Below are positions 26,968-41,753 of a stretch of 54,443 bases of DNA, in pieces. Position 1 is the stretch's first letter. Each line of letters starts with the position of its first letter. The stretch is from Patescibacteria group bacterium. Its GTDB lineage: Bacteria > Patescibacteriota > Saccharimonadia > UBA4664. Location of the stretch: NCBI GenBank assembly GCA_028288925.1, contig JAQGHG010000002.1, positions 1 to 54,443 of the forward strand. Reading direction: 5' to 3'. Under the pieces are notes generated by a model. It saw only the letters and a program-made list of their open reading frames with translations, was not told where the DNA came from and did not search any database. Both the position numbers and the translations under genes were made by a program.

Positions 26968-27096
26968 TTCGCTCTACCTCATCTGGGAATAGGCTTTGGT
27001 GGGTAGGATAGGATGTAGATCTTGAACACATTACTTGTTCGGTTGAATAATCTGTTGCTTCAGAGGGCGAGGGTATATACTGAGGCAATACGGTGA

Positions 27097-27126
27097 TTGC
27101 GCGATGTATGGCGTAAGAACTATAAT
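27097..27126 (+). promoter_or_regulatory. candidate ftsA promoter
   Basis: TTGCGC (27097-27102), an 18-nt spacer, then TATAAT (27121-27126). The SD GGGAG precedes GTG 27155. Confidence 0.4.
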
Positions 27127-27154
27127 ATGATGCAATAGGGAGCACCAAACGCGC

Positions 27155-28381
27155 GTGGCGGCAAAACAGACAGAACAAATCTACATCGGGCTAGACATTG
27201 GCAGTACCAAGGTTTGTTGTGTAGTGGGCCTGCACGAAGAAGGCGCGGCACTGCCGAGCGTAATTGGCGTGGGCGTGGCTCCTACCAGCGGCATGCGCAA
27301 GGGCGTGGTGGTGGATGTAGAGGAGACGGTGTCGTCGATTACGGCCGCCGTAGATGAGGCTGAGCGGATCTCGGGCGTGGCGATCGACCGGGCGACGATC
27401 TCGATCGACGGCGCGCACGTTACGAGTCAAAATTCGCGCGGCGTGATCGCGGTGGGCCGGGCTGACCAGGAGATCATGGTAGACGACGTGGTGCGGGTAG
27501 AGGAAGCGGCTACGGCGATCCAGCTGCCGCCCAACCGCGAGATTATCCAAGTATTTCCGCGCTCGTACTCGGTGGACGGCCAGACCAACATTAAGGACCC
27601 GGTGGGTATGAACGGTGTGCGGCTCGAGGTCGAATCGCATATTATTTCGGGCTCATTGCCGGCGATTAAGAATTTGGACCGGAGTATTCATCAGGCTGGG
27701 ATCGCGATCCAGGGCCAGGTGCTGGTGCCGTTGGCCGCGGCGCGGGCTGTGCTGACCAAGCGGCAGAAGGAACTAGGCGTGGCGCTGGTGGATATCGGTG
27801 GTGGCACCACGGGCGTGGCGGTGTACGAAGAGGGTGACATTTTGTACTCGAGCGTGCTGCCGGTAGGGGCCGGGCACATCACCAATGATTTGGCGATTGG
27901 CCTGAAGACGAGCATTGATATCGCCGAGAAGATTAAGCTCAAATATGTGCGCGCGCATACTTCCAAGGCGAGCCTGAACGAGAAGGTGAAGGTCGAGGAG
28001 CTCGATGGCGAGGTGACGCGCAAGGAGCTGCAGAACATCGCCGGCGCGCGGCTCGACGAGATCTTCCAGCTGGTACGCGCCGAGCTCAAGAAGGTCGGCA
28101 AAGACCTGATGCTGCCGGGTGGCGTGGTGCTCACGGGCGGTGGCGCCAAGATGGCCGGTATCGAGGAGCTGGCCAAAGAGGCTCTGCAGTTGCCGGCGGT
28201 GGTGGGCAAGCCGGAGGGCTTTAGCGGTATCGTGGACCGTATTAACGATCCGGCGTTTTCGGCGCCGATCGGCTTGATGCTCGAGAATATGAGCCATGGC
28301 CAGCAGGAGCAGGCGCCGGGCGCGGGGATCGGCCAGACGGTGGACCGGCTCAAGAAGACGTTGCGGAATTTGTTGCCATAG
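27155..28381 (+). CDS. ftsA: cell division protein FtsA
   Basis: 408 aa. Actin-fold motifs IGLDIGSTKV, VDIGGGTTGVAVY and VLTGGGAKMAGI. Confidence 0.92.
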   Translation: MAAKQTEQIYIGLDIGSTKVCCVVGLHEEGAALPSVIGVGVAPTSGMRKGVVVDVEETVSSITAAVDEAERISGVAIDRATISIDGAHVTSQNSRGVIAVGRADQEIMVDDVVRVEEAATAIQLPPNREIIQVFPRSYSVDGQTNIKDPVGMNGVRLEVESHIISGSLPAIKNLDRSIHQAGIAIQGQVLVPLAAARAVLTKRQKELGVALVDIGGGTTGVAVYEEGDILYSSVLPVGAGHITNDLAIGLKTSIDIAEKIKLKYVRAHTSKASLNEKVKVEELDGEVTRKELQNIAGARLDEIFQLVRAELKKVGKDLMLPGGVVLTGGGAKMAGIEELAKEALQLPAVVGKPEGFSGIVDRINDPAFSAPIGLMLENMSHGQQEQAPGAGIGQTVDRLKKTLRNLLP

Positions 28382-28481
28382 CGGGCGTCTGATGTCATTA
28401 ACGAGTATGTTTGACGCAAATCTGTTACAATAATGGCATTACTAGCAGGAACACATTATTAGCAGTTATGTCAAGTCTTCA

Positions 28482-30074
28482 TTGGTAGGATATTCATCTG
28501 AGGTTGAGGCGTGTATAAGGCATGATTCTAAGGCCTTGCGACAGGACTTTGAGAAACTCGTAGGGGTAGATGTTGCTGTGCCCGCGGGGGAGCCGGCGTA
28601 TTGGACGCTGCCGCGGGAGAGCGGCAGTTGGCGCTTGCCGGCTGATAGTACGGGATCGCGTGATAATGACAGGCTCATAATGCTACCCGTGCGCGATGAT
28701 TCGTATAAATCGAACGCGTATTTGGCGGTGATCCCGCAGCCCATGATCATGCACAAGAAGGTCTCCAAGATGTTGGAAGACTACGCTTGGCGGTTGTTCC
28801 GGCATTATCCAGTGGAGAATTCTTTGGCTCGGCGTGAGCATGGAGTACCGATGCTCATCGGCCGCTTTGACGTTATCGTTGATCAAAACGGAGGCGTCCA
28901 GATATGCGAGCTTGATGATGTGTGTAGTCTGTGGCCGGCTATGGCGCAGATAAATCCTATCACCGAAACCTATCTGAGAGCGCTTGAGCATCAATTGGGC
29001 CAGTCGATTTATACGGCTGAGCTGTTTCAGTATGCCGACTGGCCGCTCGATGCTTCGCCGCGGGTGCGTAAGGAGTTTTGCCGGATTTGGTTTTTTGAAG
29101 ATGACGGGAAGCGGATTCCCGCCTACGTTCCGCGGGCTGACTCGTTCCGAATGGCGATATTAAAGAACGACGGTTTGAACTGGCGCCGCAGTCAGAGTAA
29201 TACCGACCGGAACGCGGAATATTATGAGCGTATTTTGCAGCGGTTTTATCTCCATAATGAGGACCATTGGCGGGGCGATATCAACGACGCCTGGCTATTG
29301 AAGGGCGAGAAGTTCCGTTTGGATGAAGTGGCGTTGTCGGTGCGGGCTCACCGGGGCATGCCGGGCTTCCAAGAGCACATGGACCGCTATGGTTCCCGTA
29401 GCATCACTATGGCCTGGGAGCGGGATAGTAAGTGGTCGCTGGTGGCCGAAAAGTTGGCGGTACTGGCAGCCGATCTGGAGGTGGCCGTGGCTTTTGCCAA
29501 GGAATGGCAGGCTGATCATCCCGACGCGCTGCTGGTGTTTAAGACTTTGTATGGCGCCCGTACCGAGGGCACAGCCATCTTTAGCAGCAAGGGCACCAAG
29601 CTCAAGGGTGTTTCGTCGGCGAGCCAGATACGGCGGAAGTTTGGAGATGCGGCTCAAGAGCCAATCGTGATACAGCCGTATAAGGAGCCTGATCACCTCG
29701 CGACGGCGAAGGTGAACTTCATTGGGGCGGCCGAAGAAAATGATCGTGACATATATACGGATAGGTCGCTCATACGAAGCGTGGAGCACATGGGCAGCAG
29801 CTCCCCGGGCGAGCGGGTGGTGGCCGGGATGGAGAGCCATTTTCCGATGATTTTCCGTAGCTTCGTGGTGTACCTGCCTCATGAAAAGCGCCTGGTGAAT
29901 ATTGGGGGTTTGTGGCAGGCGACCGATGGGCGGATCGTGCATGGCGGCGCCCATTCGGTAGCGGGGCCGTTGTATGTCGATGGTCTAGTAGGACATCCTG
30001 ACGGTAGGCGGAGTGTCGGACTAGACCAGGCCGAGGCAATGATACGGAGTAAGTATTTGGAGCTGGTTGGTTAA
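28482..30074 (+). CDS. hypothetical protein, GSP-synthase / circularly permuted ATP-grasp-like
   Basis: 530-aa ORF with a TTG start; the start is uncertain, and in-frame ATGs lie at 28680 and 28743. LIGRFDVIVDQNGGVQICELDDVCSLWP resembles the GRFD...E-x-N-x-D motif of PF03738-type enzymes. Later blocks LLVFKTLYGARTEGTAIF and EPIVIQPY resemble the KP..G..G / Q-x-Y nucleotide-binding elements. The assignment is by motif recall only. Confidence 0.45.
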   Translation: MVGYSSEVEACIRHDSKALRQDFEKLVGVDVAVPAGEPAYWTLPRESGSWRLPADSTGSRDNDRLIMLPVRDDSYKSNAYLAVIPQPMIMHKKVSKMLEDYAWRLFRHYPVENSLARREHGVPMLIGRFDVIVDQNGGVQICELDDVCSLWPAMAQINPITETYLRALEHQLGQSIYTAELFQYADWPLDASPRVRKEFCRIWFFEDDGKRIPAYVPRADSFRMAILKNDGLNWRRSQSNTDRNAEYYERILQRFYLHNEDHWRGDINDAWLLKGEKFRLDEVALSVRAHRGMPGFQEHMDRYGSRSITMAWERDSKWSLVAEKLAVLAADLEVAVAFAKEWQADHPDALLVFKTLYGARTEGTAIFSSKGTKLKGVSSASQIRRKFGDAAQEPIVIQPYKEPDHLATAKVNFIGAAEENDRDIYTDRSLIRSVEHMGSSSPGERVVAGMESHFPMIFRSFVVYLPHEKRLVNIGGLWQATDGRIVHGGAHSVAGPLYVDGLVGHPDGRRSVGLDQAEAMIRSKYLELVG

Positions 30075-30231
30075 GCTAGTTGTGGAAAACCTTTATTCGG
30101 GCGATTTTTTGGGTCCTGGAGAAAATAGGTGTTGTTCATTGTTTTGATGTGGCTTGCATGGGGCAAAATTGGGCACTATTGAATAGTTAATTTATGCAGT
30201 GCTAAGCCACATTTTGACCTGAATAAGTAAT

Positions 30232-30260
30232 TTGCATTCATTTTGGAGAGCAGTTATAGT
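30232..30260 (+). promoter_or_regulatory. candidate ftsZ promoter
   Basis: TTGCAT (30232-30237), a 17-nt spacer, then TATAGT (30255-30260), within a 242-nt AT-rich spacer. The SD AAGGAG precedes ATG 30317. Confidence 0.5.
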
Positions 30261-30316
30261 CAGCTTTGTACTCGCTTGTAACCGCGGGTCCTGTGGTAAG
30301 GAGTTAAAAGAACGCA

Positions 30317-31738
30317 ATGGCCGAAATTCTCCCCGAGGTTGATACGTCAGCCCGGATCAAAGTTATAGGGTGTGGTGGTGGTGGTGGTTCGGCCTTGAAC
30401 CGCATGATCGACGCGAAGATGCAGGGTGTGGAGTTTGTGGTGATCAACACCGATGCTCAGGCCCTGGTACATTCGAAGGCCCCGCAGAAGATTCATATTG
30501 GCCGCGAAACGACGCGCGGCTTGGGCGCGGGCGCCGATCCGGAGGTGGGCCGCAAGGCTGCCGAGGAAAGCGAAAAAGAAATTTACGAGGCCGTAAAGGG
30601 CGCCGATATGGTGTTCATTACGCTGGGCGAGGGTGGTGGCACCGGTACCGGGGCGGCGCCGCTGGTGGCCGCGGCCGCTCGCGAGGCGGGCGCGCTGGTG
30701 GTGGCGATCGTGACAAAGCCGTTTACGTTTGAGGGCGAGCGGCGGCGGCGGAGCGCTGATGCTGGCATCGTGGAGCTCAAGGACAACGTCGATACGCTCA
30801 TCACGATTCCGAACGACCGGCTCTTGCAGATGATTGACCGCAAGACCTCACTGGTGGACGCCTTTGGGATCGTGGACGAAGTATTGCAGCAGGGTGTGCA
30901 GGGGATCTCGAGCCTCATCACGATACACGGCTTGATCAACTTGGACTTCGCTGACGTGAAGGCCATCATGAGCAATGCCGGATCGGCGCTGATGGGCATC
31001 GGCCGGGCGTCGGGCGACAACCGGGCGGTGGAGGCGGCGCGCCAGGCGATTGATTCGCCGCTGCTGGAAACCAGCATAGAAGGCGCGCGCGGGGTGCTGT
31101 TTAACATCACCGGCGGCCGTAATATGACCATGCACGAGATTGATGAAGCGGCCAAGGCCGTGACCGACGCGGTAGACCCGGACGCTAACATTATCTTTGG
31201 CGCTGTGCTCGATGAGAATATGGACGACGATTTGCAGATTACGGTGGTGGCGACGGGTTTTGACGCCGTGCGCAAGCCGGTGAAGCACCATGAGGCGGCG
31301 CCCAAGCGCGAGGAGCATCATGTGGCAGCTGTACCGGTAGCGGTGGCCGAGCCTGAGCCGGACCCCGAACCTGAGCCGTATACGCCTCCGGTGATGCCGA
31401 TGCCGCGCCAGCCGTTCATTAATGAGCGGCCGCAGATCGCGCCGGATCCCGAGGTAGTGCCGGTGCGCCAACCGGCTACGACGCAGGCGCCGCCACGGCG
31501 ATTCGCGTCCTTGGCCTCGATAGAGCCCGAGGACAACGAGCCGGAGCAGCCGGCGCCGCGGGCCGGCCACATGGTCCACCCGGCGCATTCGGCGAAGCAT
31601 GATGCTGAGCCGGTGTACGAGGAGACGGTGGAACCGGTCGCATCGAAATCGCAGCCTCTGGCCGAATCTGAGCTGGGCTTGCCGCTGGGCGATGACGATC
31701 TGGACGTGCCGGCCTTTATCCGTCGCAAAGTAGACTAG
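30317..31738 (+). CDS. ftsZ: cell division protein FtsZ
   Basis: 473 aa. Tubulin signature [10 protein letters not shown] and the NTDAQAL block. A long Pro/Glu-rich linker ([15 protein letters not shown]..) precedes the conserved C-terminal peptide [12 protein letters not shown]. Confidence 0.95.
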
Positions 31739-31777
31739 AAAATCTGATGCTGCTTATGGTAAAGTAGCTACAACAAG

Positions 31778-31815
31778 CCGGGACACTAGTGGAGGGTGCT
31801 AGTGTGCCGGTTTTT
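31778..31815 (+). terminator. rho-independent terminator after ftsZ
   Basis: CCGGGACACTAG (31778-31789) pairs with CTAGTGTGCCGG (31799-31810) at 11 of 12 positions, with a 9-nt loop, followed by TTTTT at 31811-31815. Confidence 0.7.
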
Positions 31816-31853
31816 GTATGCAGGACCTACCGGCGCCGTGTATACTCGGAGTA

Positions 31854-32117
31854 ATGATTGCGTATGTGCTCTACAATCGAAATACACCGGCCGAACGGAC
31901 GGCTGCCGATTTGATGAAACGGCTGAAGACCGAGCAGGTTGAGGCTGAGCTGCTCGATGCTGATAGCCCGCGCGGTATCCAAATGGCCGAAAGCTACGAT
32001 GTACTAGGCCGGCCGGCGGTGGTACTGGTGAAGGCCGATGGAACGCCGTTGCAGATCTGGCAAGGCGAGGACAGCTTGCCGTCGCCCTCGGATGTAGCTT
32101 ACCTGGCGCGGCAATGA
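31854..32117 (+). CDS. hypothetical 87-aa protein
   Basis: ATG 31854 lies 7 nt after TGtATACT (31839-31846). Translation MIAYVLYNRNTPAERTAADLMKRLKTEQVEAELLDADSPRGIQMAESYDVLGRPAVVLV.. suggests a thioredoxin-like topology without a CxxC motif. The stop overlaps the yggT start. Confidence 0.55.
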   Translation: MIAYVLYNRNTPAERTAADLMKRLKTEQVEAELLDADSPRGIQMAESYDVLGRPAVVLVKADGTPLQIWQGEDSLPSPSDVAYLARQ

Positions 32118-32374
32118 TTGGGTTGGTAGTACTGACATTCGTAGACCTGTTTGTGCCGGTCTTCAATATGCTGCTGATCGTGCGGGTGGTAATGAGCTAC
32201 TTCGCTGGTCCCGAGAATAGGTTTTTTGCTTGGCTGATGAGCATTACCGAGCCGGTGCTGGCGCCGGTGCGGCGGGTGATACCGGCTACGCCGGGGATTG
32301 ATCTGGCGCCACTGGCGGTTTTCTTTTTGCTCCAGGGGGTGAGGTACGCGGCGCACTGGCTGATCGGAGGCTAG
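32114..32374 (+). CDS. yggT: YggT family membrane protein
   Basis: 86 aa, two TM. ..LLIVRVVMSYF...ITEPVLAPVRRVIP...IDLAPLAVFFLL.. Located downstream of ftsZ, as in Gram-positive dcw clusters. Confidence 0.85.
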   Translation: MIGLVVLTFVDLFVPVFNMLLIVRVVMSYFAGPENRFFAWLMSITEPVLAPVRRVIPATPGIDLAPLAVFFLLQGVRYAAHWLIGG

Positions 32375-34507: not shown

Positions 34508-35212
34508 GTGTCTATGAACGAAGAGCAGGCTAAGACTTGGGTCAAGGATAAGACCAACCAGGACAAAGTGGTGGCTCAGTTCTTTGATGCCCATAAGCCT
34601 CTTAAGAATAAAGTTGCTCTCTTCATGGCTGGTATTCCAGGCGCCGGTAAGACCGAATTTAGTGATAATACCATTCGGGAATCGGCTCCAAGCTTCATAT
34701 CTATTGAGCATGACAAGCTCGTCGAATTTATTGATGGGTATACACCTGAAACGTACTATAACTATCGCAAAGCAGGCAGTGTGCTTGTTACGCGAATTTT
34801 TGATGAATGTTTAAAAAACGGGTACACGTTTGTTTTCGATGGAACGTTATCGAGTGAGAACGGTATTAGAAATATTAATAAATGCCTGAAGAAGGGTTAT
34901 CGAGCTATTATTGTTTATCTTGTTCAAGATGCACAAAAGGCTTGGGAACTCACACAAGCTCGTGAATTAGTAAAAAAGCGCTCAATTGAGCGAAAAGGAT
35001 TTCTCGAGACGTGCAATAAAATCAATGTTAATCTGCTTGAGATCTTTCAGGTACATAAGGACAATCCTAATTTTGAATTCTGGCTTATCAATAAGCAGGG
35101 TGAGCCAGATATGAAAAAAGCTACCGTGATTCTTCATACTCCTGAGCTGCGGAAAACTGAAGAAATAGAGTCCGCGCTGAAAATAGGCTATAATATTGAC
35201 ATAGGAAATTAG
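34508..35212 (+). CDS. zeta-toxin-like P-loop kinase
   Basis: 234 aa. Walker A GIPGAGKT, then FVFDGTLSS (compare the zeta/PezT IIEGT(L/F)R block). ATG 34514 lies 7 nt after TATACT (34501-34506), so the transcript is probably leaderless. Confidence 0.7.
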   Translation: MSMNEEQAKTWVKDKTNQDKVVAQFFDAHKPLKNKVALFMAGIPGAGKTEFSDNTIRESAPSFISIEHDKLVEFIDGYTPETYYNYRKAGSVLVTRIFDECLKNGYTFVFDGTLSSENGIRNINKCLKKGYRAIIVYLVQDAQKAWELTQARELVKKRSIERKGFLETCNKINVNLLEIFQVHKDNPNFEFWLINKQGEPDMKKATVILHTPELRKTEEIESALKIGYNIDIGN

Positions 35213-35214
35213 AT

Positions 35215-35376
35215 ATGGAGCTTAGTTTAACTCGAGAACAAAAGGATTATCTTAACGCGCACGGGCCTCTCAACGCCCCGACGCTTCAACGTGTCTATAA
35301 AAAATCGGTTGAGGATCAGCAGGAAATGCTGAAGCGGGCTGAGAAGATTCGAGATCAGCGAGCGAAGAAAAAGTAG
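35215..35376 (+). CDS. 53-aa hypothetical protein immediately downstream of the zeta-like gene
   Basis: ATG 35215 lies 2 nt after the zeta stop. Translation MELSLTREQKDYLNAHGPLNAPTLQRVYKKSVEDQQEMLKRAEKIRDQRAKKK, with TAG at 35374-35376. Below the ORF-track cut-off. Confidence 0.4.
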   Translation: MELSLTREQKDYLNAHGPLNAPTLQRVYKKSVEDQQEMLKRAEKIRDQRAKKK

Positions 35377-35396
35377 TTTACGCTAAAGTTGACCTT

Positions 35397-35423
35397 AAAA
35401 AAGACACCTACGATGTCTTTTTT
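35397..35423. terminator. bidirectional terminator between convergent island genes
   Basis: AAAAAAGACA-CCTACGA-TGTCTTTTTT forms a perfect 10-bp stem with A/T runs on both sides. Confidence 0.75.
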
Positions 35424-35445
35424 AAGCGGGTTTGCGGCGTGAGTA

Positions 35446-35964
35446 TTAATCGTTAAGGTGCGCGATAGCATAGTCCGCTTCGGCCGCAGCGAACTTTTCG
35501 CCGCTGGCAGACGTTAGCTGGTCGTGGATTGCGGCTGGCGACATGTTCATAGTACTTTGGTAGCTCTTTGCCTTGTTTAGGGCATTTGCGTTCCAGTCGG
35601 CCTTCATATTGTCGATTGCGTATTGTGCGGCTGCTGCTGAGAATTTCTCACCGTAATCTGAGGTCAGCTGGTCGTATACGCCTTGTTTGGACATGTGCAT
35701 CGTAGTGGCGTATGAAGCGGCTTTTGATAGTGCAGATTTGTACTCGGCAGGTATCTTAGGCTGCTCAGCCTTAGGAGTCGGCGTGGGTGTGGGCTTGGGG
35801 CTGGCGCTTGCAGATTGCTGGGTTGATGCGGTTTGAGCTGTACTCGTCTTTTTGTCGCCTCCGCCTAAAGCATTGCTAATCATGGCAAGCCCAATAAAGA
35901 TGAGTATCCCGGTCCACACCTTATGACGTTTAACCCAGCTCTTCTTTTCGGTTTCCTCAGCCAT
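35446..35964 (-). CDS. membrane-anchored protein with two Ltp-type (PF07553-like) repeats
   Basis: 172 aa. TM VWTGILIFIGLAMISNAL and a Pro/Thr linker. Two repeats follow: YKSALSKAASYATTMHMSKQGVYDQLTSDYGEKFSAAAAQYAIDNM and ALNKAKSYQSTMNMSPAAIHDQLTSASGEKFAAAEADYAIAHL. Confidence 0.75.
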   Translation of the reverse strand: MAEETEKKSWVKRHKVWTGILIFIGLAMISNALGGGDKKTSTAQTASTQQSASASPKPTPTPTPKAEQPKIPAEYKSALSKAASYATTMHMSKQGVYDQLTSDYGEKFSAAAAQYAIDNMKADWNANALNKAKSYQSTMNMSPAAIHDQLTSASGEKFAAAEADYAIAHLND

Positions 35965-36006
35965 TTTTACGCTCCTTCACATACTTATGCCAGTATCTTG
36001 CGGTAT

Positions 36007-36168
36007 TTAGTGCAGCTTGCCAAGGCTAAGCGTGATAGCAAGCACAAAGTAGCGCTTAGATGAGCGTGGGCGGTAGTAATGTAAACCCGCCCAAGCCTTG
36101 CCGATCCTGAACGTGCTCTGGACGCTGGTGACAACTTGCTTGGTCATGGGGAGCTGCTTTTGGGGCAT
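36007..36168 (-). pseudogene. possible remnant of an IS5/IS4-type DDE transposase C-terminus
   Basis: 53-codon ORF MPQKQLPMTKQVVTSVQSTFRIGKAWAGLHYYRPRSSKRYFVLAITLSLGKLH. It is reminiscent of the conserved transposase tail E..F..lK.wR.iatRYdK....f...v.La. No upstream catalytic part is present. Confidence 0.3.
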
Positions 36169-36234
36169 TATAGATCAGTGGGCGACTGCGGTTTGTAGGC
36201 TATAGGCAAGTAGGAGTCGTGCTATCTTAAAGTT

Positions 36235-37209
36235 ATGAGCTTCACTCAAGCGCAGTTATTCGCCAAAGTCTGGAATCATGATGGGAAGATATTCGATAAA
36301 GTTGCGCCAAAAGTCTGTATGTATGGAGGGGATTCATGTCGACCAGCTATTTGGTCCCACTCCCTAGGACAATCGAATTACCTTGATCCGATTTCCGAAG
36401 ACGGTCACGCAATACAGATTGTTCCGACTTCCAGGAGCTATCCGCCGGTCTTTGGGCCAGAAGCAATCGGTATGAGGCGGCTGTCTACCTTCTACGGATT
36501 TTGCCAAGAGCACGATTCTTCAATTTTTGATCTGATAGATCGACCCATTGATACATTTAACGCAGAATTTGCGTTTCTGTTCGCCTTTCGTAATGCGGCT
36601 CGCGAACTATGGTATGAGCAAACCGCCCTTAATTTCTTTAAATTTTCACTGAAAGATGATCCATCTGATGAGGTTAAGCCAGCGGTATTTTTATCAGGCA
36701 GGGCTCGTGTATTTTGGCTTCAGCAAGTTGTTAACCAATCAAAAATATGCAAAGACAGAGAAGAGATTTTTGCGAGGCTAAAACAGCTTTACGACAAGAG
36801 GGAATACACTTCCACTAAACACATCCTCTATTATATTCCGGTTGAGGTGCCGATTGTTTCGGCGGGCATACAACATTCGGCTGATATTTCTGCTGGGGCT
36901 GAAAATCTACGACTCCATGATTCTATGAGCTTTACTCTTTTCTCTCGGGATGGCTTTACATACATGATGCTTTCACATCTTGATGGTTCCGGGGATACAT
37001 TTGATTCACTTTGTAATACCGCCAACCAGGTTGATACGGGTATGTTTATGACTAATATGATCGCCGGTTTTGAGACAACTGTGGTACGACCATCATATTG
37101 GTTGAGTCTAGGCGAGGAAATTAGGAAAGAATTTATTGGGTTATGTCGGGCAAAAGCGATGCGAACTACGGATAAGCTTTTCCATAGCCCTCAACTAACT
37201 ATTTTTTGA
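36235..37209 (+). CDS. hypothetical protein with an N-terminal Cys/His cluster
   Basis: 324 aa, AT-rich codon usage. C-x6-C (CMYGGDSC), then WSHSLGQSNYL..DGH, then FYGFCQEHDSSIFDLID. No family name can be assigned from memory. Confidence 0.6.
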   Translation: MSFTQAQLFAKVWNHDGKIFDKVAPKVCMYGGDSCRPAIWSHSLGQSNYLDPISEDGHAIQIVPTSRSYPPVFGPEAIGMRRLSTFYGFCQEHDSSIFDLIDRPIDTFNAEFAFLFAFRNAARELWYEQTALNFFKFSLKDDPSDEVKPAVFLSGRARVFWLQQVVNQSKICKDREEIFARLKQLYDKREYTSTKHILYYIPVEVPIVSAGIQHSADISAGAENLRLHDSMSFTLFSRDGFTYMMLSHLDGSGDTFDSLCNTANQVDTGMFMTNMIAGFETTVVRPSYWLSLGEEIRKEFIGLCRAKAMRTTDKLFHSPQLTIF

Positions 37210-37286
37210 CCGGTAGGAGGTGTAGTCGACGTCGCTGGTGGGTATGTGCGGTATGTGGGCGGTTGATGAGGCAGACGTGAAACTTA

Positions 37287-38381
37287 TCAGTCTAGCGGCG
37301 GGAGTGTATTGTCGAGCCTTTGTGCATTAGAGCTGGCTAACACTCTCCCCACGGATGTTATTTGTATAGACTGGTCTTTTAGTAAGTTCCACCACTCACG
37401 AAGCTGTTGAAGATTTTGGTGTTCGTCGATCTTGTGCACAAACTCTTCTTTGGGTATGCTGCTGCCGTCATATAGATCATATATTTTGGTTAAGGCTTCC
37501 ATCTCTTTATTGGTAAGTGGTCTAGTATGCGAGGTTTTTCCATCTTTTGGATTAGTCATAGCCTGTAACCTGCTGATTGCCGATTTGTCCCTCACATCGA
37601 GCTTAAAATAATCCTCTGATGCTGAGCTTGCTATTAATATGGTTTGATCGAGCTTGCTGTCTTTTAATAACTTTTTTGCCTCGCTTAAAGCTTCAGAATC
37701 TTTAGGCATGCCGTTCTTAACGCAGCCGTCAAACATCTCGTACCAATAATCTTCTAATAGCTTAGTCCCCCCAAGAGAAGATATTCTTACTGAATCCAGG
37801 ATGTCCAAGTGGTCTAGCCACTCCGCACCGGTTGGTAGGTTGCCATCAAGTAATTTACCAAAAAGGCCGTCTAATGTTTTTAGACCGATGTCTATTTTTC
37901 CAGTTATCGGAACGAAGTTGCTTACCGCATGAAGTACCGTTAGCCCAAGCAGAGCTTCATCTGAGACTTGGTCAACAATTTCAACCGCCCGAGATATGCC
38001 AGCTCGAACACTTCTGTGGGCGCCTTTTTTGAAACGGTGCAACATGAGCTCTGCCAGTAGGTCATAGTCATGCTCGCGCTCCGTAGAGGCGGCACGTTTT
38101 TGAGCTTCCACTAATAAGATTTGAAACGATGGATCGGCGAACGCAGATAACGCACTTTCCTTGACCATTTTGCCTATCAGTTTACTGCCGAATTTTTCAC
38201 TTCTGCCTCTAGCAATGCTAGCAGCCTCTGCGGTGAAGTCATTCAACGCAAGCACCAATTTCTCATCAACAATTTCTCGCACTCTTTTTTCATTAATACC
38301 GACAACGAACGTCTCAACCTGTATTTGTTGAGCATTATTCCCGGCTTTTTGACTACTTTTGCCTGTCATTGATCTCGCCAA
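37287..38381 (-). CDS. LPO_1073/Vpar_1526-like (defence-island-associated) protein
   Basis: 364 aa. N-terminus ..SSQKAGNNAQQIQVETFVVGINEKRVREIVDEKL.. and AASTEREHDYDLLAELMLHRF..AVEIVDQVSDEALLGLTVLHAVS match my recollection of this family. TTG start, or ATG four codons later. Confidence 0.5.
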   Translation of the reverse strand: MARSMTGKSSQKAGNNAQQIQVETFVVGINEKRVREIVDEKLVLALNDFTAEAASIARGRSEKFGSKLIGKMVKESALSAFADPSFQILLVEAQKRAASTEREHDYDLLAELMLHRFKKGAHRSVRAGISRAVEIVDQVSDEALLGLTVLHAVSNFVPITGKIDIGLKTLDGLFGKLLDGNLPTGAEWLDHLDILDSVRISSLGGTKLLEDYWYEMFDGCVKNGMPKDSEALSEAKKLLKDSKLDQTILIASSASEDYFKLDVRDKSAISRLQAMTNPKDGKTSHTRPLTNKEMEALTKIYDLYDGSSIPKEEFVHKIDEHQNLQQLREWWNLLKDQSIQITSVGRVLASSNAQRLDNTLPPLD

Positions 38382-38541
38382 TCTGGATCTGGCTAGAGTT
38401 TTGTCCTGCTTTTTGTTTTTGGTTTATTGTCTTTCTAATACCAATTTTATATCCAGCAGTGCCACCAATTAATGCACCGATTAACACTGATATCATCGCG
38501 GCGCCAATACCGTCAAATGCCCACCTAAGAAATTCGTTCAT
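38353..38541 (-). CDS. 62-aa TM protein, possibly the detached N-terminus of 37287-38381
   Basis: TM GIGAAMISVLIGALIGGTAGY, then ..QKQKAGQNSSQIQIGEI.., which repeats the AG-N--QIQ motif of the downstream gene. The two ORFs overlap by 29 nt in frames offset by one, next to A5 runs. Confidence 0.45.
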   Translation of the reverse strand: MNEFLRWAFDGIGAAMISVLIGALIGGTAGYKIGIRKTINQKQKAGQNSSQIQIGEINDRQK

Positions 38542-38617
38542 TATTATATTGTAAGCTAAATATTCATTAATGTCCGTAAATGTGGTATCGTATTCTTACA
38601 ATTAAAGCTAAGAGCAT

Positions 38618-38813
38618 TGCGCCAAAAAGCGCATAAGCGGCTATCAACCGCGAAGCTGCGGGAAGAAATCGCGAGAGCGAGATTAGAACCCGACGGGAGG
38701 CCCGTAACAGCCATAAATGAAGCGCCGAAGAAGCAATTCTTTCGGAAATCGGATGGTACCTCCCTGCCCAGGGATCCGATGGACGGAAGAATTTTTGTAT
38801 TTAAGGAGCCCCC
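38618..38813 (+). promoter_or_regulatory. T-box riboswitch leader of ileS (Ile specifier)
   Basis: T-box core AAAUCGGAUGGUACCUCC at 38746-38763 (consensus AANNNGGGUGGUACCGCG). Antiterminator-type fold: CGGA 38750-53 pairs with UCCG 38775-78, with the 7-nt bulge UGGUACC at 38754-60 and upper helix UCCCU/AGGGA closed by a GCCC loop. A stem III-like hairpin with a GCAA tetraloop lies at 38725-38745. AUC followed by A sits in a 7-nt loop closed by GCGG/CCGC at 38637-38651. SD AAGGAG at 38803-08. Confidence 0.6.
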
Positions 38814-41753
38814 ATGAAAAAAGCCCAACCCGCCGATTTTCCCGCCTTTGAAGCCGATATGCTCAAGGTGTGGGACGAAGAGAAGACGTTCGAGAAGAGT
38901 CTGGAGAACCGCCAAGGCGCCAAGCGGTTTAGTTTTTATGATGGGCCGCCCTTTGCCAATGGTTTGCCGCATTATGGCCATGTGCTGGGGCTGACGATTA
39001 AGGACTCAATGACGCGCTACAAGACGATGCGGGGCTACTACGTGCCGCGTCGCAATGGCTGGGACACGCACGGCTTGCCGGTGGAGTACGAGATCGAGAA
39101 GCAGCTGGGTATCTCGGGCAAGCGCCAGATCGTGGAGATGGGCGTGGAGAAGTTTAATGAGGCGGCGAAGGCGAGCGTCTTTAAATACAAGGCCGAGTGG
39201 CAGACGCTGCAGCGGCGGATCGGGCGCTGGGCCGACCAGGAGAATTCCTACGCTACGATGGACGACACGTACATCGAGAGCGTGTGGTGGGCGCTCAAGA
39301 ACCTGCACGAGAAGGGCTTGGTGTACCGGGGTTTCCGTTCGAACCCGTATTGCCCGCGGTGTGCGACGCCTCTGAGCAACTTCGAGGTCAACCAGAATTA
39401 TAAGGACAATGTGCCGGACCCGAGCGTGTACGTGAAGCTTGCGGTGGTAGGGGAGCAGGGTACGAGCCTGCTGGCCTGGACGACGACGCCCTGGACACTG
39501 CCGGCGAACTCGGCTTTGGCGGTGGACGAGAAGGCCGACTACGTGACCGTGGAGTTGCTGGACGATGGTGATTCGTGGAAGAAGGGCGAGAAGTTGGTAT
39601 TGGCCAAGGCCCGCTTGGACGAATTAACCCTTCGCAAGGCCGAATATAAGGTGGTGAAGACACAGAAGGGCTCTGAGCTTGTGGGTACGCGCTATACGCC
39701 GCTGTATGACGGCTTGATGGGTGATTTGACTCCGGAAGAGCGCAAAGCCGTGCACACGGTGTACGTGGACGAATCGGTGAGTCTGGAAGACGGCACCGGC
39801 ATCCTGCACGTGGCGCCGCGCTACGGCGAGACCGACCTGGCGCTGGGCCAGCGGGTGGGATTGCCACTACTGGAGAGCGTAGACGGTAACGGTGTGATGG
39901 TAGAGGCTTTCAAGGACGTGGCCGGGCTGGAATCTATCGCCGGGGTGTTCTTTAAGGAGGCTGATGAGCACATTGTCGCTGATCTGACGCGCCAGGGGGC
40001 GGTGTTCGCGGCCGAGACATTTGAGCACACCTATCCCTTCTGCTGGCGCTGCGACACGCCGTTGCTGTACTTCGCGATGCCGAGCTGGTTTATTAAAGTT
40101 TCATCGTTTCGGGACCGGCTGGTGGCCAACAACGAGAAGATTAATTGGACGCCGGGGCACATCAAGACCGGCCGGTTTGGCAACTGGCTGGCCGAGGCGC
40201 GCGATTGGAACTTCTCGCGCAACCGGTTCTGGGGCGCGCCGCTGCCGATCTGGGTGAACGAGGAGGATCCGGAAGACATCATCGTGCTTGGTTCTACCGA
40301 TGAGCTGCGTGAGCTCTCGGGCCACACGGGCGACTTTGACCTGCACCGGCCGGGGATCGATAACGTGGTGATCGAGCGCGACGGCAAGCGCTACAAGCGT
40401 ACCGAAGAGGTGTTTGACTGCTGGTTTGAGAGCGGCTCGATGCCGTACGCGCAGGATCATTACCCCTTTGAGGGCAAAGAGAACTTCGCCGAGGCTTTCC
40501 CGGCCGAATTTATCGCCGAGGGGTTGGACCAGACGCGCGGGTGGTTTTATACCCTGCACGTGCTGGGTACAGCACTGTTTGACAAGCCGGCTTTCAAAAA
40601 TGTCGTGGTGAACGGCATGGTGCTGGCGGCCGATGGCAAGAAGCTCAGTAAACGCCTGCGGAACTACCCGGAGCCGAGCGAGATCTTCGAGGGTACGGGG
40701 GCGGATAGTCTGCGGCTCTTCCTGATGAGCAGCCCGGTGGTGAACGGCGAGGATGTGCGGTTTAGCTACGACGCCGTGAATGAGGTGAAGCGCAACGTCT
40801 TTATGACGCTATGGAACACGTATTCGTTCCTCTCGATGTACGCTGAGATTGATAAGTGGCAGCCGCCTAAGAGCTTAGTGGAGCCGAAATCTGACAATCT
40901 GCTGGACCGCTGGCTGTTGAGCCGGCTCAATGAGACGATGGCCGAGATGACCAAGCAGGCCGATGATTACCAGATCGCGCGGGCAGTGCGGCCGTTGCGG
41001 GAGCTCGTTGAAGATTTATCCAACTGGTATGTGCGACGTTCCAGGCGGCGGTTCTGGAAGAGTGACGATGATGGTGACAAACAGATGGCATATGTAACTT
41101 TGCACTATGTGCTCTGTAGAATTGCACAACTCTTGGCGCCCTGGAGCCCGTTTGTGTCGGATAAGCTGTGGCGCGAGCTGACTGTGGGCATGGATGTGCC
41201 GGCGTCGGTGCACCTGAGCGATTGGCCGGAGGCAGGCAAGGTGGACAGCGCACTCATGCTGCAGATGTCCCAGGCTCGTGAGTTTGTAAACCAAGGGCTG
41301 GGCGCCCGGGCTGAGGCGAAGATCAAGGTTCGTCAGCCGTTGCGCGAGTTTACAATCCGAGTTTCCCAGGAGCTGTTGCCGCAAATGTTAGAGATCATTG
41401 CGGAAGAAGTGAATGTCAAAACAGTGAGCCAAGAGGTTGTGGGGACTTCTCCTGCTCATGACTCGACACTAGATATTGAAATTACGCCCGAGCTGAAGGC
41501 CGAAGGCATGATGCGCGATGTTGTGCGACACGTGCAAAACGCGCGCAAACAGTCGGGGCTACAGGTGGAGGACCGGATCGTGTTGACGCTCCAGACCGAT
41601 TCGAAGGAATTGGCGGCGGCGATCGGTGCGCATGCCGGGCTGATTAAGGCCGAGACATTAGCTAAGGAGCTGAAGACCGAGGGCGCCGCCGACCAGGTGC
41701 CGGCCAAGGTGAACGGCGAAGAGTTGTACATTGGTGTGGAGAAGATTGGCTAG
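38814..41753 (+). CDS. ileS: isoleucine--tRNA ligase
   Basis: 979 aa. HIGH-type motif PHYGH, KMSKS-type motif KKLSKRL, and a CP1 editing insertion. Confidence 0.95.
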   Translation: MKKAQPADFPAFEADMLKVWDEEKTFEKSLENRQGAKRFSFYDGPPFANGLPHYGHVLGLTIKDSMTRYKTMRGYYVPRRNGWDTHGLPVEYEIEKQLGISGKRQIVEMGVEKFNEAAKASVFKYKAEWQTLQRRIGRWADQENSYATMDDTYIESVWWALKNLHEKGLVYRGFRSNPYCPRCATPLSNFEVNQNYKDNVPDPSVYVKLAVVGEQGTSLLAWTTTPWTLPANSALAVDEKADYVTVELLDDGDSWKKGEKLVLAKARLDELTLRKAEYKVVKTQKGSELVGTRYTPLYDGLMGDLTPEERKAVHTVYVDESVSLEDGTGILHVAPRYGETDLALGQRVGLPLLESVDGNGVMVEAFKDVAGLESIAGVFFKEADEHIVADLTRQGAVFAAETFEHTYPFCWRCDTPLLYFAMPSWFIKVSSFRDRLVANNEKINWTPGHIKTGRFGNWLAEARDWNFSRNRFWGAPLPIWVNEEDPEDIIVLGSTDELRELSGHTGDFDLHRPGIDNVVIERDGKRYKRTEEVFDCWFESGSMPYAQDHYPFEGKENFAEAFPAEFIAEGLDQTRGWFYTLHVLGTALFDKPAFKNVVVNGMVLAADGKKLSKRLRNYPEPSEIFEGTGADSLRLFLMSSPVVNGEDVRFSYDAVNEVKRNVFMTLWNTYSFLSMYAEIDKWQPPKSLVEPKSDNLLDRWLLSRLNETMAEMTKQADDYQIARAVRPLRELVEDLSNWYVRRSRRRFWKSDDDGDKQMAYVTLHYVLCRIAQLLAPWSPFVSDKLWRELTVGMDVPASVHLSDWPEAGKVDSALMLQMSQAREFVNQGLGARAEAKIKVRQPLREFTIRVSQELLPQMLEIIAEEVNVKTVSQEVVGTSPAHDSTLDIEITPELKAEGMMRDVVRHVQNARKQSGLQVEDRIVLTLQTDSKELAAAIGAHAGLIKAETLAKELKTEGAADQVPAKVNGEELYIGVEKIG

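Follow-up and report, generated by a model that had tools for sequence, protein, structure and literature searches.

The stretch of DNA analysed here, referred to below as the window, comprises 54,443 nucleotides (nt) of a Patescibacteria group bacterium (Saccharimonadia; UBA4664) and corresponds to positions 1-54,443, forward strand, of contig JAQGHG010000002.1 in assembly GCA_028288925.1. Few gene pairs are as strongly conserved among bacteria as ftsA and ftsZ; in this window the two genes are separated by an open reading frame (ORF) of 530 amino acids (aa) and an AT-rich spacer (Table 1), and it is the nature and origin of this ORF that are addressed here. The original prediction had read the ORF as an ATP-grasp-like ligase that might modify FtsZ or another divisome component, with an unrelated insertion as the fallback. 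The gene layout on which it was built is correct in its coordinates, the two flanking genes being confirmed by Pfam, and the three peptides that it quoted (LIGRFDVIVDQNGGVQICELDDVCSLWP at aa 125-152, LLVFKTLYGARTEGTAIF at aa 350-367 and EPIVIQPY at aa 393-400) are all present in the translation, as is the TTGCAT-17-TATAGT sequence in the spacer preceding ftsZ.

Table 1. Features of the ftsA-ftsZ region of the window (positions are those of the whole window).
Feature	Position	Strand	Details and basis
ftsA, left flank of the insertion	27155-28381	+	408 aa; Pfam FtsA/SHS2_FTSA, E 1e-38
Lineage-specific insert (100-nt leader plus ORF), about 1.69 kb	28382-30074	+	Comparison with the spacers of relatives
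AT-rich leader of the ORF, GC 0.39	28382-28481	+	Extended -10-like TGTTACAAT at 28423-31
530-aa ORF, TTG start; predicted amide ligase with an ATP-grasp fold, from a family of Patescibacteria not yet classified	28482-30074	+	AlphaFold2 model, Foldseek, hhalign, conserved columns
Spacer between ORF and ftsZ	30075-30316		242 nt; GC 0.41 vs 0.58 for the window
Conserved AGTTGTGGAAAAC motif, right edge of the insertion	30078-30090	+	Invariant or nearly so in 7/7 spacers
Promoter-like element before ftsZ	TTGCAT 30232-30237, 17 nt, TATAGT 30255-30260	+	Sequence scan; conservation in relatives lacking the ORF
Shine-Dalgarno AAGGAG of ftsZ	30298-30303	+	Within GGTGGTAAGGAG, conserved in 7/7 aligned spacers
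ftsZ, right flank of the insertion	30317-31738	+	473 aa; Pfam Tubulin + FtsZ_C, E 8e-49

Judging from its sequence conservation, the ORF is a genuine gene, because it has 49 homologue clusters, the best at E 3e-250, with full-length identities of 62-69 %, and because the alignment of the 530-aa family contains 15 invariant columns. The automatic gene call (P0001, 464 aa) begins at a later ATG. This start would exclude W50 and R51, which are nearly invariant and are encoded upstream of it, and homologues align from about residue 4 of the 530-aa form, so that the long form is the better gene model.

The position between ftsA and ftsZ is particular to the window. From a set of 80 ftsA loci of species-representative genomes, the 68 with at least 1.5 kb of sequence downstream of ftsA were counted: ftsZ directly follows ftsA in 66 of them, at a distance of 0-758 nt (median 196), and none of these 66 pairs has the ORF in between. 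The two non-adjacent loci (L034:7236-12185 and L050:1213-4990) belong to distant lineages of Patescibacteria and show no ftsZ within 3.8-4.9 kb after ftsA. In the six closest relatives, Saccharimonadia metagenome-assembled genomes (MAGs; L013-L017 and L031) whose FtsA is 87-89 % identical to that of the window, the gap measures 203-266 nt, compared to 1,935 nt in the window. Homologues of the ORF were placed in context at eleven independent loci (L001, L003, L005, L006, L007, L008/L011, L009, L010, L012, L172 and L173), none of which lies near ftsA or ftsZ and no two of which have neighbours in common. Among 185,579 species-representative genomes, the 530-aa family was found in 4, which are all Saccharibacteria/Patescibacteria MAGs and include no close ftsA relative. 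Orthologues between ftsA and ftsZ in related genomes, for which the original prediction proposed to look, are thus absent from the pairs compared, and by conserved position the ORF is not a member of the division (dcw) cluster. These comparative data agree with the fallback of an unrelated insertion.

The spacers of the relatives also show where the insertion took place. In every close Saccharimonadia relative, the motif (A)GYTGTGGAAAAC is located 5-30 nt past the stop codon of ftsA, whereas in the window the same motif is found past the stop codon of the ORF instead, and an 18-nt stretch of the window (GCTAGTTGTGGAAAAC...) exactly matches the post-ftsA sequence of L031. From this motif to the ATG of ftsZ, the sequence is conserved in relatives lacking the ORF as GAATAA..TTTGCAT-N17-TATAGT..TGTACTCG..GGTGGTAAGGAG, and in one of them (L016) TTTGCA-18-TATAGT was called as the same promoter-like element. 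Because promoter-like matches are no more numerous in the region than in shuffled sequences (4 vs 3.1 +/- 1.6), the weight of the ftsZ hexamers rests on their conservation in relatives. On this evidence the candidate promoter of ftsZ is ancestral and predates the insertion, and the earlier suggestion that the insertion had forced ftsZ to acquire a promoter of its own is refuted, as relatives that lack the insert carry the same block. In L013 (7245-7290) and L014 (7270-7320), (A)GYTGTGGAAAAC is followed by a terminator-like hairpin with a T-run, while none was called after the motif in the window. Since the promoter-like block and these hairpins occur in relatives lacking the ORF, ftsA and ftsZ were already separate units before the insertion.

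For the AT-rich leader of the ORF we infer a promoter function from its sequence; its -10-like box, at similar distance, is the only element common to the leaders of homologues. Between this box and the start codon, the leader of the window carries a direct repeat of 12 nt (CATTAYTAGCAG; 28437-48 and 28454-65, copies CATTACTAGCAG and CATTATTAGCAG, 17 nt from start to start), which may be an operator or have arisen by chance. An Rfam scan of 27000-32200 detected no riboswitch or leader RNA.

An AlphaFold2 model of the 530-aa protein, built on the family alignment, reached a predicted local distance difference test (pLDDT) score of 89.6 and a predicted template modelling (pTM) score of 0.89. In Foldseek, the top 12 matches of this model were all ATP-grasp ligases, among them PGM1 (3wvq, probability 0.96) and Escherichia coli YgiC (7uk8, probability 0.99, TMt 0.44 over 504 columns), next a Streptomyces ATP-grasp peptide ligase (8ynd), and then Ddl and PurK. 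As the E-values were marginal, a search for simpler relatives was performed. When 1.84 billion representatives were searched exhaustively with the profile, 136 proteins were returned, comprising 21 full-length relatives and a larger set of proteins of about 300 aa that matched in two to three pieces. In hhalign the 530-aa and the ~300-aa families aligned with a probability of 99.9 % (E 1e-34); as judged from this alignment, the 530-aa form is an expanded version of the ~300-aa core, lengthened at the N-terminus by aa 1-80 and further along by two inserts at about aa 180-283 and 405-450.

The model of the ~300-aa, or minimal, family (pLDDT 95.5, pTM 0.93) gave six Foldseek matches at E <= 1e-3 with probabilities of 0.99-1.00. 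YgiC (7uk8, E 6.0e-7), Mfla_0391 (3n6x, annotated as a ‘putative glutathionylspermidine synthase’, E 6.4e-7, TMq 0.59), GspS (2io7, E 7.2e-7) and yeast glutathione synthase (1m0t, E 3e-5) all had a probability of 1.00, and the classical ATP-grasp proteins GshB, LysX, Ddl, TTLL6, PurT and synapsin ranked lower. The minimal-family profile meets the classical ATP-grasp protein DcsG at both hallmark motifs, with their order swapped, which points to the circular permutation typical of the group formed by GspS, YgiC and eukaryotic glutathione synthase. Taken together, the models support the three-subdomain ATP-grasp fold for the 530-aa protein, and we conclude that it is a predicted ATP-grasp amide ligase of the permuted type that lies outside PF03738, PF04174 and PF14403 as these families are defined. 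With PF03738 there was no match at E <= 1 for any of the 32 members of the 530-aa family profile, compared to E 4e-164 for YgiC itself, and the PF04174 and PF14403 profiles likewise gave no match at E <= 1, the similarity to 3n6x being one of fold only. The earlier guess of a permuted ATP-grasp enzyme of the GspS/YgiC type therefore stands for the fold, the nearest Foldseek neighbours being YgiC, GspS, Mfla_0391 and eukaryotic glutathione synthase, and for the motif order (R-x-D...E-x-[N/D], then V-K-[PT]...G), which was verified in YgiC itself, but not for profile membership in the three families. Because no Pfam, NCBIfam or Protein Data Bank (PDB) sequence model detects the ORF protein, the family is unclassified; it is confined to Patescibacteria (the candidate phyla radiation, CPR) and recognisable solely by structure. 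The sole trace in the sequence-model searches was a sub-threshold similarity to DUF6333 (E 0.05; six of the 32 family members match, best E 0.0014), which covers aa 427-527 of the ORF (FRSF...GGMWQA...HGG..S.AGPL). It is possible that DUF6333 represents a further fragment or branch of the permuted ATP-grasp group.

The structure paper on TryS lists R328, D330, E344, N346, K513, K548 and R613 as strictly conserved ATP/Mg2+ residues, and Q583 for adenine (PMC2427367). The window protein presents residues in the same order, namely R128-x-D130, then after 12 residues E143-x-D145-D146, K317, K354, Q398 and R459. In the 530-aa family alignment R128, D130, E143, D145 and D146 are invariant, and K317, K354, Q398 and R459 are at least 90 % conserved; the same columns are conserved in the alignment of 91 sequences of the minimal family. 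We regard R128, D130, E143, D145/D146, K317, K354, Q398 and R459 as putative ATP/Mg2+ ligands. Written as motifs, the window protein reads RFD (128-130), ELDD (143-146), VFKT (352-355) and IQPY (397-400), and YgiC reads SRLD...LLENNADTP and YVVKP...IVQQF.

The conservation of these residues bears on the possibility that the protein is a non-catalytic relic, that is, a decaying or repurposed ATP-grasp scaffold. Such a pseudo-enzyme might be suspected from the change of the canonical E-x-N to E-x-D-D, from the failure of every sequence model to recognise the protein and from a TTG start that no obvious Shine-Dalgarno sequence precedes. However, the reading frame is intact and full-length, the protein is well conserved along its whole length in many homologues (at the identities given above), and all of the invariant charged residues are kept, the same ones being conserved in the minimal family, so that we consider a relic scarcely credible.

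Loci of the minimal family were collected with a degenerate DNA pattern for the motif [YF]E[IV]E[DE]RPAG, which identified 34 genuine short-family loci (within L094-L171), all from Patescibacteria. Neighbour clustering together with Pfam and NCBIfam scans revealed a directly adjacent hydrolase partner in 26 of the 34. An M20 deacylase of the ArgE/DapE type is present in 20 loci (18 directly downstream, one directly upstream and one two genes upstream), an EgtC-like class-II glutamine amidotransferase (GATase) in six (five directly downstream and one directly upstream), and a stand-alone class-I GATase/Peptidase-C26-like protein in two. The partners are almost always encoded on the same strand and immediately downstream, as in L170:657-2767, L106:3543-5341 and L121:4265-6138, and all three types are amide-bond hydrolases. 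The short family thus looks like an uncharacterised ligase-hydrolase module, and by analogy the pairing suggests a ligate-and-hydrolyse chemistry whose target would be a small molecule or the end of a peptide. Hidden Markov models (HMMs) of the three partner types had no match in the 54-kb window or in L001-L012, and the 530-aa form is not seen as part of such a module.

In the first two minimal-family loci, L094 and L096, the ligase gene adjoins a class-II aminoacyl-tRNA synthetase (aaRS) gene and the dcw cluster; this adjacency was considered as a functional clue and discarded, as it is not general over the 34 loci. The same two loci, with their neighbouring mraZ, rsmH, penicillin-binding protein (PBP), Mur-ligase, MraY, FtsW and MurG genes, would also fit a cell-envelope ligase that forms an amide in the peptidoglycan stem or on the cell surface and is loosely associated with dcw genes, an explanation with which the presence of D-Ala-D-Ala ligases among the generic fold matches and the location of the window ORF in a division cluster agree. 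However, the only recurrent neighbours over the 34 loci are the amidohydrolase partners, the 530-aa family lacks linkage to envelope genes at its eleven homologue loci, and the model gives no membrane or secretion signal, though no test was aimed at such an association. A role in the envelope is for these reasons very unlikely.

Tubulin tyrosine ligase (TTL) and the tubulin tyrosine ligase-like (TTLL) enzymes are ATP-grasp superfamily members that make amide bonds via an acyl-phosphate, and it is on this parallel that a link between the ORF and FtsZ was built: a ligase of this kind would attach amino acids or an amine to the FtsZ linker, its C-terminal tail or another division protein. The ORF protein has the ATP-grasp fold in common with TTL/TTLL, ftsA, the ORF and ftsZ share one strand and are not separated by any terminator-like site, so that co-transcription is possible, and LysX is among the fold matches of the ~300-aa model. 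Some ATP-grasp enzymes paired with M20 proteins do act on protein C-termini, as LysX/LysK on LysW. The position of the ORF is, however, unique to the window contig, with 0/66 adjacent ftsA-ftsZ pairs and 0/11 homologue loci showing any such association, and FtsZ itself does not differ in relatives without the gene. Its Pro-rich and acidic linker measures 140 aa in the window and 108-155 aa, with 12-23 % Pro, in all 13 relatives examined that lack the ORF, and the C-terminal peptide is common to the window and all 13. Since 13/13 relatives without the ORF carry it, the long linker is a feature of the clade and unrelated to the ORF. The topology is the permuted one of GspS, not the classical, non-permuted one of TTL, and the structural similarity to TTLL6 proved weak and generic: with the window model 6vzq ranked 47th (E 1.5 over 76 columns), and with the minimal relative 6vzu ranked 11th (E 6e-3), behind GspS, glutathione synthase, LysX, Ddl and GshB. 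Pfam TTL had no match to the ORF, which does not fall within the TTL/TTLL family. The proposed link to FtsZ or the divisome is accordingly not upheld, and we hold an FtsZ-modifying ligase to be highly improbable.

The explanation that we consider likely is that the ORF, a member of an unclassified family of Patescibacteria, encodes a stand-alone amide ligase of the ATP-grasp type, and that it was inserted behind ftsA in a single lineage and has no functional coupling to FtsZ. A cassette of about 1.7 kb, consisting of the gene and its own AT-rich leader, would have been inserted right after the stop codon of ftsA, ahead of a spacer and an ftsZ promoter that were already there, in the lineage of the window only; the position would then be a tolerated intergenic site without functional coupling to FtsZ. 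The ORF encodes an intact and probably active carboxylate-amine ligase of the ATP-grasp type, its catalytic activity and substrate class being what we infer by analogy with characterised members of the fold. In the proposed mechanism ATP-Mg2+ would be held by R128-x-D130, E143-x-D145-D146, K317, K354, Q398 and R459, the carboxylate of the substrate would be phosphorylated to an acyl-phosphate, and attack of an amine on the latter would yield the amide bond.

How the cassette arrived is a separate matter. A mobile or accessory origin of the ORF is plausible because its distribution is patchy and toxin-antitoxin or integrase genes neighbour it in other genomes. In its strongest form, this would make the ORF the cargo of a mobile or accessory element, e.g. 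a defence or conflict enzyme, that hops from one Saccharibacterial genome to another and landed in the ftsA-ftsZ spacer by chance. The presence of the family in so few species representatives, with a different context at every locus, fits such a cargo, as do the neighbours Fic/VbhA and Zeta-like in L001, PemK and YafQ in L007 and rve in L172, and the fact that the nearest homologue of the ORF is 68 % identical compared to up to 89 % for FtsA. In L012 (7840-7960) the full-length homologue that diverges most is immediately preceded by a tRNA-like sequence (GGCGGAATTGGTAGAC...TTCAAGTCCTCTCATCCGCACCA), and tRNA genes are common integration sites. Nevertheless, no terminal inverted repeats or target-site duplication were found flanking the insert, which is a single gene without integrase or transposase; searches of the ORF protein in PADLOC, PHROG and a viral-structure library gave no match; and the GC content of the ORF (0.556) is near that of the genome (0.578). 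A cargo of this kind is unlikely.

Several observations weigh against the reading of the ORF as an active, uncoupled ligase. Searches of the ORF and of its 32-sequence profile in Pfam, NCBIfam and PDB sequences had no match, and hhalign comparison of the window family or the minimal family with YgiC, taken as a single sequence or as an alignment of 114 sequences, remained insignificant (probability <10 %), so that no sequence-profile method joins the 530-aa family to any ATP-grasp family. The homologue search for YgiC had given solely sequences at least 77 % identical to it, which makes for a poor template profile, and the best co-linear alignment with YgiC pairs the same motifs, though insignificantly. 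The window model itself scores marginally in Foldseek (E about 5e-4, low TM-score), the Mg2+ motif E-x-N reads E-x-D-D (ELDD) in the window protein, with Asn replaced by Asp, and the operon clue for the 530-aa form is borrowed from relatives that are 20-30 % identical. Finally, as no terminator-like site was found between ftsA, the ORF and ftsZ in the window, read-through from ftsA could give division-coupled expression of the ORF. That such read-through makes the protein, in this lineage, a division-coupled ligase that modifies the FtsZ linker or tail or another divisome protein can hardly be credited, as all of the comparative data speak against it; if true, it would provide a bacterial counterpart of tubulin tail modification, carried out by a permuted GspS-type rather than a TTL-type enzyme.

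If the uncoupled ligase is accepted, the insertion, striking as the break in so conserved a gene pair may look, is a one-off event in a spacer between what were already two transcription units, and it gives no pointer to a modification of FtsZ. What it yields is a by-product of modest value, namely an unannotated branch of permuted GspS/YgiC-like ATP-grasp ligases that is restricted to Patescibacteria, includes about 136 clusters at 50 % identity and has no Pfam or NCBIfam model. In these organisms, whose metabolism is minimal, the conserved ligase/hydrolase pair of the minimal family probably makes and breaks a specific amide, e.g. a gamma-glutamyl, N-acyl or polyamine conjugate, which, once identified, might disclose a metabolite or a protection chemistry specific to CPR.

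Some further observations concern the window and the collected loci at large. Positions 34508-38981 form a low-GC island (GC 0.44-0.50 vs about 0.59) just upstream of a class-I aaRS gene (38814-41753). The island comprises a Zeta-toxin/AAA_33 gene (34508-35212), a phage-type Ltp surface lipoprotein gene on the minus strand (35446-35964) and three ORFs without a Pfam match, and probably represents accessory or horizontally acquired DNA. Over nearly the whole window (1-54443) the GC skew is uniformly and strongly positive, at about +0.1 to +0.3 per kb; the long ORFs of the window are mostly on the + strand, and no tRNA genes were found in its 54 kb. Among the loci collected, several MAG records labelled ‘uncultured Gammaproteobacteria’, ‘Micavibrio’ or ‘Pseudomonadales’ carry a Patescibacteria-type ftsA-ftsZ pair or the CPR-specific ligase, and these labels look wrong (L037, L041, L048, L055, L056, L062, L063, L065, L068 and L078; further L111/L127, L138, L154, L159 and L170).

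Compared with known systems, the minimal relatives follow the two-gene logic of ligase plus hydrolase that is seen in LysX/ArgX-LysK, PuuA-PuuD and EgtA-EgtC, and their model has a fold match to LysX (5k2m, E 3e-3). They differ from LysX, RimK and GS in that their ligase is of the permuted GspS type and no carrier protein was seen, and the 530-aa form of the window differs from LysX-LysK-like pairs in being without a hydrolase neighbour. Eukaryotic glutathione synthetase (1m0t, 5oev) is likewise a permuted ATP-grasp ligase and, as mentioned above, a confident fold match of the minimal relative, although it is only about 10 % identical, has much larger substrate-binding elements and shows no relationship at the sequence level. 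Mfla_0391, whose type we take to be that of Pfam CP_ATPgrasp_1/2 (PF04174/PF14403), shares the permuted topology and has the highest TM-score to the minimal-family model, but it has other operon partners, and the window family is restricted to Patescibacteria. Uncharacterised amidoligases of the Mfla_0391 type were reportedly placed in ligase-plus-peptidase gene neighbourhoods by Iyer and colleagues in 2009.

The best global fold matches to the window and minimal families are the peptide-spermidine ligases YgiC/YjfC and the synthetase domains of GspS and TryS (PF03738). The differences lie in the E-L-D-D of the window family in place of E-x-N, in the N-terminal region and in two family-specific inserts; in addition, the amidase of GspS is a fused CHAP domain, whereas the partners of the minimal family are of the M20 or GATase type. 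What these enzymes have in common is the permuted order in which R-x-D...E-x-[N/D] precedes two Lys residues and a hinge Gln, the conservation in the window family of the equivalents of TryS R328, D330, E344, K513, K548, Q583 and R613, and, in the case of GspS/TryS and the minimal family, the pairing of a ligase with an amidase activity.

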